This document shows, piece by piece, positions 1 through 22,420 of a stretch of 26,813 nucleotides of DNA. The position numbers and the translations under genes were made by a program. Within the stretch, counting starts at the first letter, position 1. Each line of letters begins with the position of its first letter. Below the pieces are notes generated by a model. The model did not search any database, was not told where the DNA came from, and saw only the letters and a list, made by a program, of their open reading frames with translations. Source of the DNA: a virus (Duplodnaviria; Heunggongvirae; Uroviricota; Caudoviricetes); the IMG/VR virus record IMGVR_UViG_2537561933_000012. The stretch is one strand, 5' to 3'.

Positions 1-267
1 TTACTCTGCAGGTGAAGTCGGCCACTCAATATCAGGTGCGGTTGATGTATCAACACGGTTCAGCAACACCCGATACTTCTTCCAGGCTTCCAGCAACGAG
101 TTTTCTTCCTCCGTTGCGATCTCCAGATCTACAGCATCCTGAAGTGGCGCAATATGCTCACTGAATTCCTGGATGTAGAACTGTGTGGTGACGGTCTTCC
201 AGCCATTCGGCTCCTGCTGTATCGAAGCATACCAGGCTATTTCAATATCGCTATGCTGCGGCAGCAT
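1..267 (-). pseudogene. Tail fibre assembly protein (Tfa), C-terminal fragment, 88 aa ORF
   Basis: Translation ends ...[32 protein letters not shown], matching the recalled C-terminus of lambda Tfa; far too short for a full Tfa (~190 aa). Confidence 0.6.
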
Positions 268-3235: not shown

Positions 3236-3447
3236 CAGAACCTCGCCAGCCGGTACCCGGGATGCCCCCGTCGTCGTGTAATCAGAGCCGCAAGGCGGCG
3301 CTCCCACTCCTGCCGCCCCTGCCGGATCTCAGATAAGTTTTCCATGGTCATCTGCTGACCATTAAAAGTGACGGATTTTCCGTCCAGCACCGCCATTTCA
3401 GCTTCCGTATAACGCTGAATCATGGCTTCGATATCATTCTGGTTCAT
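3235..3447 (-). CDS. Head-tail joining protein gpW-like
   Basis: About 70 aa, C-terminal RRRGHPGY resembling lambda W RRRGPAGF; GGAGG Shine-Dalgarno 7 nt upstream of ATG at 3447; ATGA overlap with terminase stop. Confidence 0.6.
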   Translation of the reverse strand: MNQNDIEAMIQRYTEAEMAVLDGKSVTFNGQQMTMENLSEIRQGRQEWERRLAALITRRRGHPGYRLARF

Positions 3448-5546
3448 AACCATCCTCCAGAAGTCAGCCAGGGGTTAACATCGTCAGTTACTGTTTTCTT
3501 CCGTTTTTGTTTTTTAACAGGCGTGGATACCGGTTCCGGTGAGGATGACGGTTCGGTACTGTCCTGGACACACTCCAGCCAGGTTTCCCGGCTCGCCCAC
3601 TCCGGTGCATCCGGCCAGCGGATCTTTTCGTATCCATGCAGAATGACCAGAGCCTCGGCATACACCATCAGGTCAAAAGCTTCGTTGGCACCGCGACCCG
3701 GCTTACTCCATTTCCCGTCACTGCTCCGCTCTTCATACGTCAGTTCGTCGTAAAACCAGCTCCCCAGCCAGTCAGGGAAATGCACATAGCCTGGACCTGG
3801 CGAGTCACGCCATAACGCGTTATTCACCCGGTCTTTCAGGGCATCCGTCTGAAGAAGCCAGAGCGGCACATCACCTGCGGCCTGCGCCCGGCGGCCCGTT
3901 CGTCCGGTGTTATCAGGGAATGTACGGCTGATCAGTTTTGCGCGCCGGATGCTGTCCCCCTTAAACAGGTAAATACGTTTACCAAGGCCATCACGACGGC
4001 AACGACGCCAGAATTTATAGGCATTATCAGTGACCCCGTCTTCACCGCCGGAGTCCACCGCCATTGCCATCAGTCGCATTTGTTGAGAAGGATCGGAGGC
4101 CAGCGGCCAGCTTTTATGAAAAACATCCGTCAGCAGGACATCCCAGTCTTCCGGATAGCTGGCCGGATCAATTCGCTGGCTCTCCCCGTCGCTGTCACCG
4201 CGCAATGACTGCGTGATGTTGTAACGATCAATAATCCAGCGTTCGCCACGGCTGCCATAGCCCGTTACCTGAACCACAAAACGGCGATGACGTCCCGCCT
4301 GCACATCCACTGTCGCCACAAGGAAATTAACGCCATCCGGCACACTGCGGGAAGGAACTGGCTCTGCCCGCTGCTCAAGCAGTTCACTTTTTCGTTGCTC
4401 CATGCTGGCGCGGGGAAGATAAGGTAATCCCCAGTCGGTATTGATAACCGTCTTGAGTGTTTCTTCACTTCCGGTTGTCTCGTATTCCTGTTCTGCAGTA
4501 AGCAGTTTGTAAACGAGTTGCGAGAGTGTCTGGTAAGCAGCTGCCGGACCCTCCATCCAGAATGACGCAATACGTGAGCGTCGGGGATCACCATAACGAC
4601 TGCCATCCGCATTGATGGATTCACCATCCCGCAACCAGACCCCACGTCCGTTCAGCTCACGTTTTTGTTCAGGCATAATCCGTCCTGAACAGGAAGGACA
4701 CTGAATATAAGCCGCCTCACTTGCCAGCACGGGATCGGCAATATCACGGAAACCAGCAACCACATCGCCGCAGGGCTGAAAATACTCACCACAGTGTGGA
4801 CAAGGCCAGTACCAGCGACGGCGATCGCCACGGTTATAGAGCGACAGTATCCCCGTGGTTGGTGGAGCCTCATGCGGTGAAGTCCGTCGCCATTTCACAT
4901 CCTTCACATCCCTGCCGGGGGAACTCTCCACAAGCGTCATACCACTGGACATAAATGTTGTGGTACGTTTTGAGGCAAGAGAGAAAGCATCCCCCTCGCC
5001 ATCAATATCTTCCGGAAAACGGTCATAATCCGTCAGCGCGACGCATTTATAATCTGATGAGGACATGATATTGACTGACGGCCAGCCGATTTTCAGGTAG
5101 TTACCAGCAAGGAATGTTCTGTCATAAACGTTGTTGTCATTTTTGTTCGGACTCAGGCGACTGACCACTTCCGGGCTGACGCGAAACGTTCTGGCGAGTC
5201 GTTTTTTGGAGTGTTCGCGGGCTTTTTCCTCCGTCATCTGTATGATCAGCATATCAGCAGGATCGCAAATCACGTTGTAAATCCCCCAGCCGTCAATCAG
5301 GCCGATAGTCTTACCAGTTCGTGCCGGGCCAACAAATATCACTGCGTCGTATTCACGCGAGGCCAGGCAGTTCATCGGCTCAATAACATACGGTGCCACC
5401 AGCGGATCCCACGGGACTGAATTCCCGGCCCCCATGGGCACCCGCATATACTGAGCAACGGCATCAGCAACCCGCATTCGTCTCGGTGCGCGAAGGATAT
5501 AACCTGAATCGGTTCGTGCTGCCTTTGCGGTTTCCTGATTCAGCAT
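3444..5546 (-). CDS. Terminase large subunit, lambda gpA family, 700 aa
   Basis: Long ORF with CPHCGEYF zinc-finger-like motif as in lambda gpA (CPHCGEEQ); start overlaps small-subunit stop (TAATG). Confidence 0.9.
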   Translation of the reverse strand: MLNQETAKAARTDSGYILRAPRRMRVADAVAQYMRVPMGAGNSVPWDPLVAPYVIEPMNCLASREYDAVIFVGPARTGKTIGLIDGWGIYNVICDPADMLIIQMTEEKAREHSKKRLARTFRVSPEVVSRLSPNKNDNNVYDRTFLAGNYLKIGWPSVNIMSSSDYKCVALTDYDRFPEDIDGEGDAFSLASKRTTTFMSSGMTLVESSPGRDVKDVKWRRTSPHEAPPTTGILSLYNRGDRRRWYWPCPHCGEYFQPCGDVVAGFRDIADPVLASEAAYIQCPSCSGRIMPEQKRELNGRGVWLRDGESINADGSRYGDPRRSRIASFWMEGPAAAYQTLSQLVYKLLTAEQEYETTGSEETLKTVINTDWGLPYLPRASMEQRKSELLEQRAEPVPSRSVPDGVNFLVATVDVQAGRHRRFVVQVTGYGSRGERWIIDRYNITQSLRGDSDGESQRIDPASYPEDWDVLLTDVFHKSWPLASDPSQQMRLMAMAVDSGGEDGVTDNAYKFWRRCRRDGLGKRIYLFKGDSIRRAKLISRTFPDNTGRTGRRAQAAGDVPLWLLQTDALKDRVNNALWRDSPGPGYVHFPDWLGSWFYDELTYEERSSDGKWSKPGRGANEAFDLMVYAEALVILHGYEKIRWPDAPEWASRETWLECVQDSTEPSSSPEPVSTPVKKQKRKKTVTDDVNPWLTSGGWL

Positions 5547-9461: not shown

Positions 9462-9536
<75 letters not shown>

Positions 9537-9539
9537 ATA

Positions 9540-9615
<76 letters not shown>

Positions 9616-9617
9616 AC

Positions 9618-9694
9618 TGGACCGCCACCGGGGACTCGAACCTCGCACACTCAACTTAAAGAGTTGACGCTCTTTCCTGATGAGCTAGTGGCGG
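9618..9694 (-). tRNA. tRNA of uncertain identity (anticodon positions read UUU, Lys-like, but loop is UCUUUAA with C at position 33)
   Basis: Acceptor CCGCCAC/GTGGCGG, T-loop TTCGAGT, CCA encoded; non-canonical anticodon loop and one A-C mismatch in the T-stem. Confidence 0.5.
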
Positions 9695-9695
9695 T

Positions 9696-9771
9696 TGGTG
9701 GCCCTTGCTGGATTTGAACCAGCGACCTGGCGATTATGAGTCGCTCGCTCTCACCACTGAGCTAAAGGGCC
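9696..9771 (-). tRNA. tRNA-Ile2 (anticodon CAU, ileX/ileZ-like)
   Basis: GGCCCTTTAGCTCAGTGGT...CTCATAA...GGTTCAAATCC...AAGGGCCACCA, close to recalled E. coli ileX. Confidence 0.8.
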
Positions 9772-19735: not shown

Positions 19736-19822
19736 ATCACCCTCACAATGTGAACTTTGAGTACATGCCATAACAGAACTGACAGTACATTCAAGAGCGA
19801 ATATCATTGAACTTATGGTTCA
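19736..19822. promoter_or_regulatory. Divergent promoter/operator region between the Cro-like and repressor genes
   Basis: Related sites TGAACTTTGAGTACA (19751-19765) and TGAACTTATGGTTCA (19808-19822, overlapping the repressor ATG); GTACAT half-sites at 19761 and 19785. Confidence 0.4.
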
Positions 19823-20234
19823 TGAAGATAAAGCGCGTAAAGAGTTCGCCAGTAGGCTTGCGCTAGCCTGTGAAAACGCTGGTTATGAACAACATGGAAG
19901 GCAGGCAGAAATTGCCCGTCGAATGAAATTAACACCAAAAGCGGTTAGCAAATGGTTTAATGGCGAAACAATTCCTCGCCGGGAGAAATTAAGGGAATTA
20001 GCAACACTAATAGGAACAACACCAACCTATCTTTTGGGAGAGGATACAGAAGAAAGTGGACAGGTACGTTTCTATCAGGAGTTAAATCCAAGACAAAAAA
20101 TCATCATTGACCTTCTGGACGAGCTCCCTGACAGTGAGACAGATGAACTTTTAAAAACTCTTGAAGAGAAAAAACAGAAGTACAATGCAATTTACGAAGA
20201 GTTAGCACGAAAGAAAAAACAAAAAGCCTCTTAA
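19815..20234 (+). CDS. dicA: Prophage repressor, DicA-like XRE-family HTH, 139 aa, no peptidase domain
   Basis: HTH AEIARRMKLTPKAVSKWFNGE; followed by the ydfA-ydfB-ydfC-DicF-dicB operon as in Qin. Confidence 0.6.
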   Translation: MVHEDKARKEFASRLALACENAGYEQHGRQAEIARRMKLTPKAVSKWFNGETIPRREKLRELATLIGTTPTYLLGEDTEESGQVRFYQELNPRQKIIIDLLDELPDSETDELLKTLEEKKQKYNAIYEELARKKKQKAS

Positions 20235-20846: not shown

Positions 20847-21065
20847 ATGCAGAAACGAGAACCCGTCATCATCGCGCCAGACTATACCGATGATGAGCTT
20901 TATGAGTGGATGCGCCAGAAAATTAAGGCCGCGCAGGACCTGAAATGGGCCAATGAAGCCAAGGCTAAGCAGGCTGAAAATCTGTCCGCTCTGGAGCAGG
21001 ATATCACCAATTTGGAAAAAGCAGCGGCATTAAGCATTGCCAGAATGATTACATACCCACGTTAA
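20847..21065 (+). CDS. ydfC: YdfC-like protein, 72 aa
   Basis: Size and position match Qin ydfC (recalled). Confidence 0.55.
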   Translation: MQKREPVIIAPDYTDDELYEWMRQKIKAAQDLKWANEAKAKQAENLSALEQDITNLEKAAALSIARMITYPR

Positions 21066-21087
21066 TAGCTAACCAACGAGGCTAATA

Positions 21088-21462
21088 ATGGAATTTAAAG
21101 ATTTACCAATGCAATTCCAGGAAATGGCAGCGAATATAGTTCGTTCCCAACTGGCGACTCTTGACCTGAGTACCGTAGAAAAAGAAACCATCGATACTAT
21201 ATCCGGTAACGTGCGTCGTGCCTTTATCGGTCTGTACGAAGAGAAGCAGCTCTCTGATAACCAGGATTTACATGAAAAATACCTCCTGGAATTAATGGAT
21301 ATCATTGATAAGGGGTTTGGCTTGTTAATGAAAAAGAAAGGGATTCGGATAGAACCCCTTAAGAACCATTTTACTGAGTGCGGCATTAATCCCAGCGATT
21401 TAAACCATCCCGCCACAGATGGGAGTGTTACAGTTAGCCATGAAATTTCGATTAATCATTAA
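21088..21462 (+). CDS. Hypothetical protein, 124 aa, inserted between ydfC and DicF
   Basis: ORF with ACGAGG Shine-Dalgarno; no family recognised. Confidence 0.5.
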   Translation: MEFKDLPMQFQEMAANIVRSQLATLDLSTVEKETIDTISGNVRRAFIGLYEEKQLSDNQDLHEKYLLELMDIIDKGFGLLMKKKGIRIEPLKNHFTECGINPSDLNHPATDGSVTVSHEISINH

Positions 21463-21673
21463 AATCAATTGCACTTTCAATAAGTGATGCCATCTCATTG
21501 CATTTTGTTGAATTCATCTTACGCAATGAGTCACAAATTTCCGCTGGCTTTGATGACGCAGGCAACTTAGCAGCAAGTAGCATAATTGCCGTTTTTATAG
21601 CAGTGAGCTCATCCGCAAGTCCAGCAGGAGAAACATCGTGGTTAAACTGGATATTTACATTTTTACTAGTCAT
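21452..21673 (-). CDS. Hypothetical protein, 73 aa, convergent with and overlapping the 124 aa gene by 11 nt
   Basis: ATG at 21673 preceded by a strong AGGAGG Shine-Dalgarno 5 nt upstream. Confidence 0.5.
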   Translation of the reverse strand: MTSKNVNIQFNHDVSPAGLADELTAIKTAIMLLAAKLPASSKPAEICDSLRKMNSTKCNEMASLIESAIDFND

Positions 21674-22004
21674 TTCACCCTCCTGAGGGTTGGTAATTAA
21701 GGAGTTCTCCACGGGTCAGGTGGAGTGCGTGCGCCGGACACGGGTGAGCATCCGGCACTGGCAGTTTACTGGAAGGATATATCCCTGAAAAGTCAGGACA
21801 TAACGCGAAAGCGCACGGCGAAGTTATTCTGTCTGTACGGTGTCGTTAAATTTAATTCGACCGTGCGCTTCCGGTTGTGGCAATCCGCGAAATGGCGCGG
21901 CGGTAAGTATGGCGGGGTTATTCCTTCCCCGTTGAGGACACCGGGTTGTCAGGTTGACCATACGCTTAAGTGACAACCCCGCTGCAACGCCCTCTGTTAT
22001 CAAT

Positions 22005-22062
22005 TTTCTGGTGGCGTTTAGCGGTATCAGTTTTACTCCGTGACTGCTCTGCCGCCCTTTTT
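22005..22062 (+). ncRNA. dicF: DicF small RNA with intrinsic terminator
   Basis: TTTCTGGTGGCGTTTAGCGGTATCAGTTTTACTCCGTGACTGCTCTGCCGCCCTTTTT, two mismatches to the recalled K-12 DicF; upstream of dicB. Confidence 0.75.
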
Positions 22063-22066
22063 AAAG

Positions 22067-22214
22067 TGAATTTTGTGATGCGGTGAATGCGGCTAAGCGC
22101 ACGCGGAACAGTTAAAACCAAAAACAGTGTTATGGGTGGGTTCTCTGTATCCGGCGTTAATTGTTAACTGGTTAACGTCACCTGGAGGCACTAGGCACCG
22201 CATCACAAAATTCA
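22067..22214. repeat. 19 bp perfect inverted repeat (TGAATTTTGTGATGCGGTG / CACCGCATCACAAAATTCA) enclosing 110 bp between DicF and dicB
   Basis: Read directly; right arm ends 17 nt before the dicB ATG. Confidence 0.65.
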
Positions 22215-22231: not shown

Positions 22232-22420
22232 ATGGAAACGTTATTACCAAACGTTAATACGTCTGAAGGTTGTTTTGAAATTGGTGTCACTATCAGTAAC
22301 CCAGTATTTACTGAAGATGCCATTAACAAGAGAAAACAAGAACGGGAGCTATTAAATAAAATATGCATTGTTTCAATGCTGGCTCGTTTACGTCTGATGC
22401 CAAAAGAATGTGCACAATGA
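22232..22420 (+). CDS. dicB: Cell division inhibitor DicB, 62 aa
   Basis: METLLPNVNTSEGCFEIGVTISNPVFTEDAINKRKQERELLNKICIVSMLARLRLMPKECAQ, near-identical to recalled K-12 DicB; GAGGACG Shine-Dalgarno. Confidence 0.85.
   Translation: METLLPNVNTSEGCFEIGVTISNPVFTEDAINKRKQERELLNKICIVSMLARLRLMPKECAQ

Follow-up and report, generated by a model that had tools for sequence, protein, structure and literature searches.

The interval between ydfC and the DicF small RNA in a Qin-like (dicBF) prophage was found to contain a pair of convergent genes, here called orf124 and orf73, and we propose that the second of them is a moron-type accessory gene that fills the sieB slot of this prophage as an independent transcription unit, reversed within the early-left operon; we would give this reading an even chance. 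The prophage lies on a 26,813-nt stretch of DNA from a virus of the Caudoviricetes (IMG/VR record IMGVR_UViG_2537561933_000012), and this whole stretch is referred to as the window. The pair and its surroundings are defined by the following features:

21088-21462, plus strand: orf124, an open reading frame (ORF) of 124 amino acids with an ATG start (ORF list)
21452-21673, minus strand: orf73, an ORF of 73 amino acids from the ATG at 21673 (ORF list and internal ATG)
21452-21462, both strands: tail-to-tail overlap of orf124 and orf73, 11 nt (ORF coordinates)
21679-21684, minus strand: Shine-Dalgarno sequence of orf73, AGGAGG, with a 5-nt spacer to the ATG (read in the sequence)
21086-21687: the cassette, 602 nt absent from K-12 Qin, from TAATGGAA at the orf124 start to CACCCTCCTGAG at the orf73 Shine-Dalgarno sequence

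The minus-strand ORF was listed by the program as 21452-21712, with 86 amino acids from a GTG codon, and the internal ATG at 21673 gives the 73-residue product. A preliminary description of this DNA had reported the convergent pair of 124 and 73 residues, overlapping by 11 nt in the ydfC-DicF interval of a plus-strand operon, together with a strong AGGAGG Shine-Dalgarno sequence for the minus-strand ORF; the coordinates were confirmed, and the Shine-Dalgarno sequence was present at 21684-21679, 5 nt from the ATG. The same description had taken the pair for an insertion relative to Qin, and the ydfC-DicF interval was accordingly compared with that of Escherichia coli K-12. The spacer measured 940 nt in the window and 340 nt in K-12 Qin, and a three-way alignment with K-12 Qin and PPompW showed that K-12 is missing exactly 21086-21687, i.e., the pair plus the orf73 Shine-Dalgarno sequence, with flanks that were 95-100% identical, so that neither ORF exists in Qin at this place. 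The cassette had a GC content of 38-43%, as compared with 50-55% in the flanks. K-12 Qin retains, however, a promoter-like box and hairpins 1 and 2 of the orf73 leader described below (61 bits with the leader covariance model), and since K-12 still carries these remnants its empty site looks like a deletion relic. A third state, in which orf124 was kept and orf73 and half of hairpin 2 were lost, was found in at least 21 IMG/VR loci and in E. albertii; both this state and the empty site look, from their sequences, like deletions from a cassette-bearing ancestor. The pair is thus extra with respect to K-12, by 602 nt, but the direction of the change was probably the reverse of an insertion. The orphan leader of K-12 lies at NC_000913.3 ~1,649,045-1,649,130, minus strand (4046-4131 of locus L003), without a Shine-Dalgarno sequence or ORF, and points antisense into ydfC. 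In a search of 5,426 complete E. coli genomes, 1,782 matched part of the query and 88 matched at least 80% of it. Several enterotoxigenic E. coli genomes contained IS1 insertions in the cassette, with orf124 truncated to 104 amino acids and given an IS1-derived tail, or orf73 fused to IS1-derived residues (L012; P0122).

The position of orf73 corresponds to that of sieB. On its plus strand the window has a dicBF early-left operon of the Qin type (a DicA-type repressor gene, ydfA, which encodes a DUF1391 protein, ydfB, ydfC, DicF, dicB, ydfD and a RecE-like exonuclease gene), in which the features that mark this operon type, from the DicA-type repressor through ydfA/B/C, DicF and dicB to ydfD, share one orientation; orf73 is the only minus-strand gene, all the remaining ones being on the plus strand. 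The landmarks on either side of the pair are these:

19815-20234: DicA-type repressor gene (gene list of the window)
20847-21065, plus strand: ydfC, the operon gene just before the cassette, forming its left flank
22006-22057, plus strand: DicF small RNA (Rfam RF00039, 68.6 bits, threshold 48)
22233-22420, plus strand: dicB, cell-division inhibitor gene (gene list)

In lambda, PL and N are followed by sieB, reversed and abutting N, which is the slot and orientation that orf73 has in the window. In Rac, racR, ydaG and ydaF (DUF1391) precede a reversed sieB with a 4-nt overlap, followed by kilS and kilR, and the window shows in the same order a dicA-like gene, ydfA (DUF1391), ydfB, ydfC, orf124, the reversed orf73, DicF and dicB. 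As sieB does in lambda and Rac, orf73 runs antisense in an early-left operon and lies tail to tail with the preceding gene, and it occupies the sieB slot. Rac locus L425 (NC_000913.3 1,418,405-1,419,311) has a DUF1391 gene, antisense sieB, the small RNA kilS and the FtsZ inhibitor gene kilR, i.e., the layout of the window, and a small RNA and a division inhibitor downstream of an antisense accessory slot look like a conserved module layout. The possibility that orf73 encodes a SieB protein was discarded, as there was no homology in Pfam or NCBIfam, the product has 73 amino acids versus 162-184, and it contains no hydrophobic segment; SieB is membrane-associated. The leader covariance model did not match the DNA upstream of Rac sieB. 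Elsewhere in the window, the DicF-dicB spacer gave a sub-threshold Rfam match to STnc100 (22069-22209, plus strand; 34.7 bits versus a gathering score of 47, E = 1.5e-5), and an IS009 RNA element (41-244, minus strand, 129 bits) and four clustered tRNA genes (9465-9771, minus strand) were observed, and these agree with a lambdoid prophage late region.

Genes of the 73-residue family kept this antisense placement wherever they could be assessed. Eight contexts were available (the window; a Salmonella Cox/P2-type prophage, L204; Yersinia L207 and L208; E. coli L209, L210 and L215; and Salmonella phage 118970_sal3), and in all eight the gene ran opposite to its neighbours and shared 11-83 nt with the 3' end of the operon gene before it. 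Six of these genes lay in an early operon that begins beside a repressor gene, typically two to four genes in; that of L208 was found between a Q-like antiterminator gene and a holin gene, i.e., in a late operon, and the contig of L215 was too short to place the operon. No DicF was found in the loci of this family outside the window. The overlapped partner was a 'LKH..EPNAGTEARI' module in L204, L209, L210 and L215, a zf-C4_ClpX protein in L207, phrog_26625 in L208 and orf124 in the window. The L208 partner resembled the orf124 N-terminal domain by eye, and this candidate relationship was dropped when the PHROG hidden Markov models (HMMs) gave no support. Yersinia L207 contained a second antisense small gene in its early-left operon (4149-4382, 77 amino acids), with a 4-nt overlap with the tail of a LKH-module gene. 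The EPNAGTEARIW codons of the LKH module form an 8-bp palindrome, CCAAATGC..GCATTTGG (L204 ~3240-3275; L209 ~5290-5320), which could fold in either transcript, ~90-110 nt beyond the stop codon of the small gene.

The variable content of the ydfC-DicF interval in the dicBF region has been drawn as 'non-conserved genes' (PMC5069750, Fig. 9), and a survey of 120 IMG/VR loci, fetched by a backbone motif, showed that the site is a recombination hotspot, usually empty and otherwise occupied by one of at least five alternative convergent pairs. Eighty-eight loci (~73%) were empty like K-12, and the occupied ones comprised ten pairs of type D (135 amino acids on the plus and 77 on the minus strand, PPompW-type), three of type A (that of the window), two of type E (133 and 92), one of type B (106-109 and 86-96) and one of type F (201 and 63); in 14 loci there was no ydfC motif or the interval was interrupted by a contig end. 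All the alternative minus ORFs at the site were placed at an identical distance from the same CTCAGGAGGGTGA motif and ATG. The alternative plus proteins shared ~53 N-terminal residues and differed in their downstream parts, whose modules reassort. Among the minus proteins, BLASTP found no alignment of A with B or of A with D. A single diverged family made up of A, B and E was considered and rejected, the A family having no hhalign match to B/E; types B and E were related, with 29% identity. Types A, B, D and E each occurred with several DicA-type repressors, and one repressor allele occurred with all four. The type B minus ORF had 86, 91 or 96 amino acids depending on the copy number of a 15-nt FNHES repeat (L006, L021, L038).

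The conserved N-terminus and variable C-terminus of orf124, with a different small ORF beside each type of tail, are what would be expected if orf124 and orf73 formed a cognate toxin-antitoxin or effector-immunity system, in which the orf124 C-terminus is matched to the small partner, and the recurrence of the 73-residue family beside the LKH module in L204, L209, L210 and L215 fits this as well. We nevertheless regard such a system as improbable. The two genes are not an obligate couple, because at least 21 loci keep orf124 without orf73 (as does E. albertii, where orf73 is likewise deleted) and the orf73 family takes other partners, those of L207 and L208 being unrelated; besides, the modules reassort, the LKH module being found with A-family and E-type ORFs and the D module with D and F. 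Some of the co-variation of tail and minus ORF is, in addition, unavoidable, because the two genes share the final 11-68 nt of the plus gene on opposite strands. Disorder is predicted for the orf124 tail, and the type A C-terminal domain was without homology to the LKH module, its identification as a diverged 'LKH..EPNAG' module having been rejected at an hhalign probability of 1%. A type II toxin-antitoxin system was discarded on similar grounds: the genes are convergent, orf124 stands without orf73 in the loci just mentioned, and relatives of orf73 have other partners. The type I arrangement of the Bacillus subtilis txpA/RatA kind was also discarded, as neither product of the pair is hydrophobic and the antisense partner is protein-coding, with the substitution ratio given next.

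Judged by their substitution patterns, both orf73 and orf124 are genuine genes under purifying selection. The ratio of nonsynonymous to synonymous substitution rates (dN/dS) of orf73 was 0.12-0.19 at a dS of ~1.2, when compared with a Salmonella homologue (74% identical) and a homologue from a metagenomic contig (67%). For orf124, the ratio was ~0.07-0.1 over the N-terminal 55 codons, 0.15-0.3 in the middle and ~0.25 in the tail, and values well below 1 for both genes indicate that they are not chance ORFs. The dS of orf124 climbed from ~0.1 to ~1 toward its 3' end, a mosaic signature in which divergence increases toward the cassette core. These data also bear on the notion that the pair is a decaying or spurious annotation in a cryptic prophage, with no current function. 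Qin-like elements are often defective, IS1 interrupts the cassette in several genomes, and the cassette was lost from most loci; yet dN/dS is well below 1 in both genes, the Shine-Dalgarno sequence, start codon and leader are conserved across genera, and a family member is present in the sequenced phage 118970_sal3, so we lend this notion almost no credence.

The searches for homologues and folds placed both proteins in families with no assigned function. orf124 gave a full-length HMM match to phrog_6937 (E = 1.3e-81) and orf73 to phrog_7249 (E = 5.8e-46), both of unassigned function in PHROG. A total of 239 homologues of orf124 were found; it is built from a conserved N-terminal domain of ~55 amino acids, common to phrog_1363, 2151, 9419 and 33007, a middle helix and a variable tail (residues 91-124). 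In its AlphaFold2 model, helices span residues 8-23, 32-55 and 60-84, with a predicted local distance difference test (pLDDT) score of 60 overall and <50 in the tail, in line with the predicted disorder of residues 91-124. The orf73 model, like that of orf124 of modest confidence (pLDDT 65), has helices at 16-36, 43-52 and 56-71, and the product is predicted to be a small soluble helical protein; no transmembrane segment was detected, the maximum Kyte-Doolittle 19-residue mean being 1.27 versus the threshold of 1.6 applied. In profile searches the orf73 family comprised 17-19 clusters, all from Enterobacterales (E. coli, Salmonella and Yersinia). Pfam, NCBIfam and PADLOC gave no significant match for orf73, orf124 or eleven related cassette and partner proteins; no Pfam family, the SieB model included, was matched at E <= 1 by orf73 or five other minus ORFs, and the PADLOC v2 defence-protein models did not match orf73 or orf124. 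Other cassette proteins gave only weak PADLOC matches: the type B ORF to BrxA (E = 0.014), the LKH-module partner to Csx19 (E = 0.0024) and the type J ORF to REase_II (E = 0.022). The orf73 family profile matched no PDB sequence, and Foldseek searches of the AlphaFold2 models against PDB and BFVD returned no significant match; histone-like matches were discarded (E > 5), and the only near-match was an uncharacterised phi191 protein, to the orf124 N-terminal domain. Nothing was found in the literature on the RefSeq protein accessions of the pair. The earlier statement that neither protein is recognisable therefore holds, the sole family matches being PHROGs without assigned function and no fold being significant, and the 73-residue ORF turned out to be conserved, with a family that spans genera.

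A structured leader precedes orf73 and is composed of the following elements:

21671-21756, minus strand: orf73 leader (5' untranslated region), 86 nt including the ATG at 21673-21671 (covariance model R1, 110 bits)
21756-21733, minus strand: hairpin 1, GCCGGAUGC, a 6-nt loop and GUGUCCGGC
21725-21707, minus strand: hairpin 2, CUCCAC, a 7-nt loop and GUGGAG
21704-21700 and 21684-21680, minus strand: helix 3, CUCCU paired with AGGAG of the Shine-Dalgarno sequence

Covariance model R1 recovered the leader with 55-108 bits in 20 further loci. In the alignment of ten distinct versions, 95.7% of cells were paired, and this value fell to 33-53% in slid controls; three pairs, in hairpin 2 and the anti-Shine-Dalgarno helix, showed compensatory double changes (e.g., U-A to A-U in the latter), and the covariation score was reached by none of 500 shuffles. 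The RNAfold z-score was -2.57 for the minus strand versus -0.26 for the plus strand, and, of four stem changes that affect one side, three preserve G-U pairing on the minus strand only, the change in hairpin 1 of Salmonella L204 being the opposite. The folding bias and the G-U pattern indicate, at the sequence level, that the structure belongs to the orf73 mRNA and not to the DicF precursor. The leader was not restricted to orf73: the covariance model places it before about ten unrelated small ORFs (types A, A*, B, D, E, F, G, H, I, J and K), which come from Escherichia, Salmonella, Edwardsiella and Trabulsiella. Type H consists of a Pro-rich peptide of 30-36 amino acids (MLINQFG..P.PDGQVPYRP..), followed 8-14 nt later by a protein of 155-156 amino acids with two hydrophobic segments (L234, L278, L442, L443, L446, Edwardsiella L325 2181-2835 and Trabulsiella L375), and neither product was matched in Pfam or PADLOC. 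In types I, J and K, the ORF behind the leader has 63, 91 and 104 amino acids, respectively. The leader itself matched no known Rfam family at E <= 5. A GTDB scan was made with a 17-mer of hairpin 1, a short GC-rich pattern for which nearly all 120 rows were chance matches in high-GC genomes, and the relevant matches were limited to E. coli, E. albertii, Edwardsiella and Trabulsiella. In Salmonella L204, an 80-residue ORF with a strong Shine-Dalgarno sequence (2706-2948) spans the leader and ends in an ATGA overlap with the orf73 homologue; this ORF may be translated or may be incidental to the leader structure. The same locus contains a C4 antisense RNA at 1900-1987 (Rfam, 71.8 bits).

Candidate signals for the start and end of the orf73 transcript were identified on both sides of the gene:

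21763-21791, minus strand: predicted orf73 promoter, TTTTCA (21791-21786), a 17-nt spacer and TAAACT (21768-21763) (read from the sequence)
21338-21360, minus strand: predicted terminator-like hairpin inside orf124, AAGGGGTTCTATCCGAATCCCTT followed by the T-run TCTTTTTCA (hairpin search)

The TAAACT box ends 6 nt before hairpin 1, and in most of ~12 unrelated upstream contexts a -10-like box, often of the extended form TGnTAnnAT, was found 2-9 nt (mostly 4-7) upstream of this hairpin. Given the recurrent position of the box, the mRNA would begin at the foot of the 5' hairpin, for orf73 presumably near 21756. The terminator-like hairpin at 21360-21338 is also found after the type B minus ORF, and types D and G have weaker or stronger candidates. 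The two genes leave no space between them for a terminator, so the orf73 transcript must overlap orf124; its predicted length is ~425 nt, of which ~125 nt would be antisense to the orf124 3' end.

With these elements, the accessory-gene reading of orf73 would work as follows. A weak sigma-70 promoter (TTTTCA, 17 nt, TAAACT) would initiate transcription at the base of the 5' hairpin and yield an 83-nt leader, with two hairpins and the helix that pairs with the Shine-Dalgarno sequence, ahead of the orf73 ATG; the transcript would then extend ~125 nt into the orf124 3' end and stop at the terminator-like hairpin. In the lysogen, a DicA-type repressor would silence the plus-strand operon, leaving orf73 expressible, and the gene is probably expressed there. 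When the operon fires, convergent polymerases and sense-antisense pairing would shut off orf73; conversely, orf73 transcription would trim orf124 and the read-through that reaches DicF and dicB. Recombination would use the leader and the conserved 5' half of orf124 as homology arms, between which unrelated small ORFs would be swapped, each with a short piece of the orf124 tail, giving alternative cassettes with a rewritten overlapping orf124 C-terminus.

The convergence of orf73 on an operon promoter ~1.4 kb away, upstream of DicF and dicB, underlies a different explanation, which the preliminary description had put forward as transcriptional interference: that the unit acts in cis at the RNA level, its promoter against the dicBF operon and its antisense RNA dampening DicF and dicB, with the protein being secondary. 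The obligatory overlap of the transcript with orf124 agrees with this, as does the retention of promoter and leader even in empty sites such as K-12, and OOP/cII and STnc6030 are examples of antisense RNAs with a 3' overlap that act in prophages (PMC7067206); the expression of dicB and DicF is, furthermore, toxic (PMC5069750). However, orf73 and its relatives are under purifying selection as proteins, and at least ten different coding sequences are kept behind the leader, which would be needless for a pure RNA function. Moreover, ~73% of dicBF loci lack the cassette, and prophages that have no DicF also harbour the gene and leader, in one case within a late operon, so DicF is not the specific target of orf73. 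Interference with DicF and dicB is therefore mechanistically plausible, and may occur, but found no support here as the general purpose of the gene, and we consider a primarily cis-acting role unlikely. A literature search for an antisense transcript between ydfC and dicF found none.

Returning to orf73 as a moron in the sieB slot, several observations weigh against it. The promoter candidate scored 8/12, under the cut-off of 9/12, and a consensus promoter scan of the minus strand upstream of orf73 found none; there was no terminator-like hairpin for type E or A*. The leader is kept in most empty sites, where it could have a different role, e.g., by acting as antisense RNA or within the DicF precursor on the plus strand. 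With helix 3 over the Shine-Dalgarno sequence, translation may be limited at rest, and this fits poorly with simple constitutive expression in the lysogen. In Edwardsiella, the type H unit adjoins an integrase gene and is not embedded antisense, which indicates that the antisense placement belongs to this slot and not to the leader. Finally, as the protein lacks a transmembrane segment and resembles neither SieB nor any defence model, it is position that points to exclusion. From that position, we would guess that orf73 has a role in phage-host or phage-phage interactions in the lysogen, such as exclusion.

Among the known systems closest to orf73, morons of temperate phages such as HK97 gene 15 share with it patchy presence, sharp boundaries and deviating GC content, and orf73 has a candidate promoter and terminator of its own (PMC3594210, PMC7067206); the cassette is extra DNA with sharp edges, absent from K-12 Qin and from 88 of the 120 backbone loci, with a base composition unlike that of its neighbours, and the orientation of orf73 would permit expression from a repressed prophage. 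Unlike in morons, the leader is common to many unrelated ORFs, and the gene always overlaps the 3' end of its neighbour, whose C-terminus it rewrites. An antisense position is typical of accessory loci, for which OOP, sas/sieB and STnc6030 are precedents; in P22, the operon transcript supplies the antisense RNA sas, which controls sieB translation (PMC7067206). Lambda OOP against cII and BTP1 STnc6030 resemble orf73 in being convergent transcripts over the 3' end of an operon gene (PMC7067206), but both are non-coding, whereas orf73 appears from its dN/dS to be a protein-coding gene under purifying selection. The 86-nt leader recalls the promoter early stem-loop (PeSL) cassettes of T4-type phages, in which a conserved promoter and stem-loop stand before diverse ORFs and apparently provide homology for shuffling (PMC2839356, PMC4122927); in contrast to these, it occurs in temperate Enterobacterales prophages, is longer, includes a helix that occludes the Shine-Dalgarno sequence, has no sequence relation to them and is antisense to the host operon in this slot. 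The overlapping genes olg1 and gene 10 of Pseudomonas aeruginosa phage Fc02 are another parallel: the gene of a 7.9-kDa protein expressed in the lysogen overlaps, in antisense, a gene of the early lytic operon, and superinfecting phages are excluded by both products (PMC9936078). Neither this phage nor its sequences are related to those described here, and the Fc02 overlap spans most of the genes, while that of the window involves the 3' ends only.

The small, homologue-poor and highly variable prophage proteins of transcription factor-small ORF (TF-smORF) modules, encoded near immunity or accessory regions, are also similar to orf73 (PMC10432266, Silpe et al. 2023), and such proteins, with 50-80 amino acids and a fast divergence, inactivate cI (PMC10432266). 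With this precedent, orf73 might be a small antirepressor directed at the prophage repressor, providing an induction route independent of SOS; it lies near the immunity region, and a restrained Shine-Dalgarno sequence would suit a tightly controlled inducer. The window, however, has no adjacent, divergently transcribed transcription factor gene, unlike TF-smORF modules; the type of cassette, and with it the minus ORF (types A, B, D and E), does not follow the repressor allele; and family members reside in prophages with quite different repressor types, one of them in a late operon. We consequently rate an antirepressor function as very unlikely.

As a moron or occupant of the sieB slot, orf73 would belong to a known kind of gene; the leader that it shares is undescribed. 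A wider interpretation, which we find doubtful though possible, is that the leader constitutes a portable platform for regulation, in which an extended -10 promoter is combined with two hairpins, the first at the 5' end, and with a helix that covers the Shine-Dalgarno sequence, and that it defines an undescribed class of swappable small-gene cassettes in Enterobacterales prophages and satellites. Such cassettes would carry about ten unrelated 'dark' ORFs of 30-104 amino acids, among them the Pro-rich type H peptide with its protein of two hydrophobic segments, and would fill the sieB slot in lambdoid early-left operons. The occluded Shine-Dalgarno sequence would make translation conditional, opened, e.g., by the converging operon transcript, RNA processing or infection; the proteins would form an arsenal for exclusion or counter-defence in the lysogen, and the antisense placement would confer self-immunity on the resident phage, as sas does for P22.

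For the much-studied dicBF/Qin region of E. coli, these results describe a hotspot equivalent to the sieB slot, with interchangeable small genes behind one structured leader, and the orphan leader of K-12 predicts an unannotated antisense RNA against ydfC in MG1655. If the proposal is correct, the locus would be a compact case of sense-antisense coupling between the lysogenic and lytic programmes, and the leader could be used as a search handle for accessory genes. Should the proteins prove to be exclusion, defence or regulatory factors, very small soluble effectors would be added to prophage biology.

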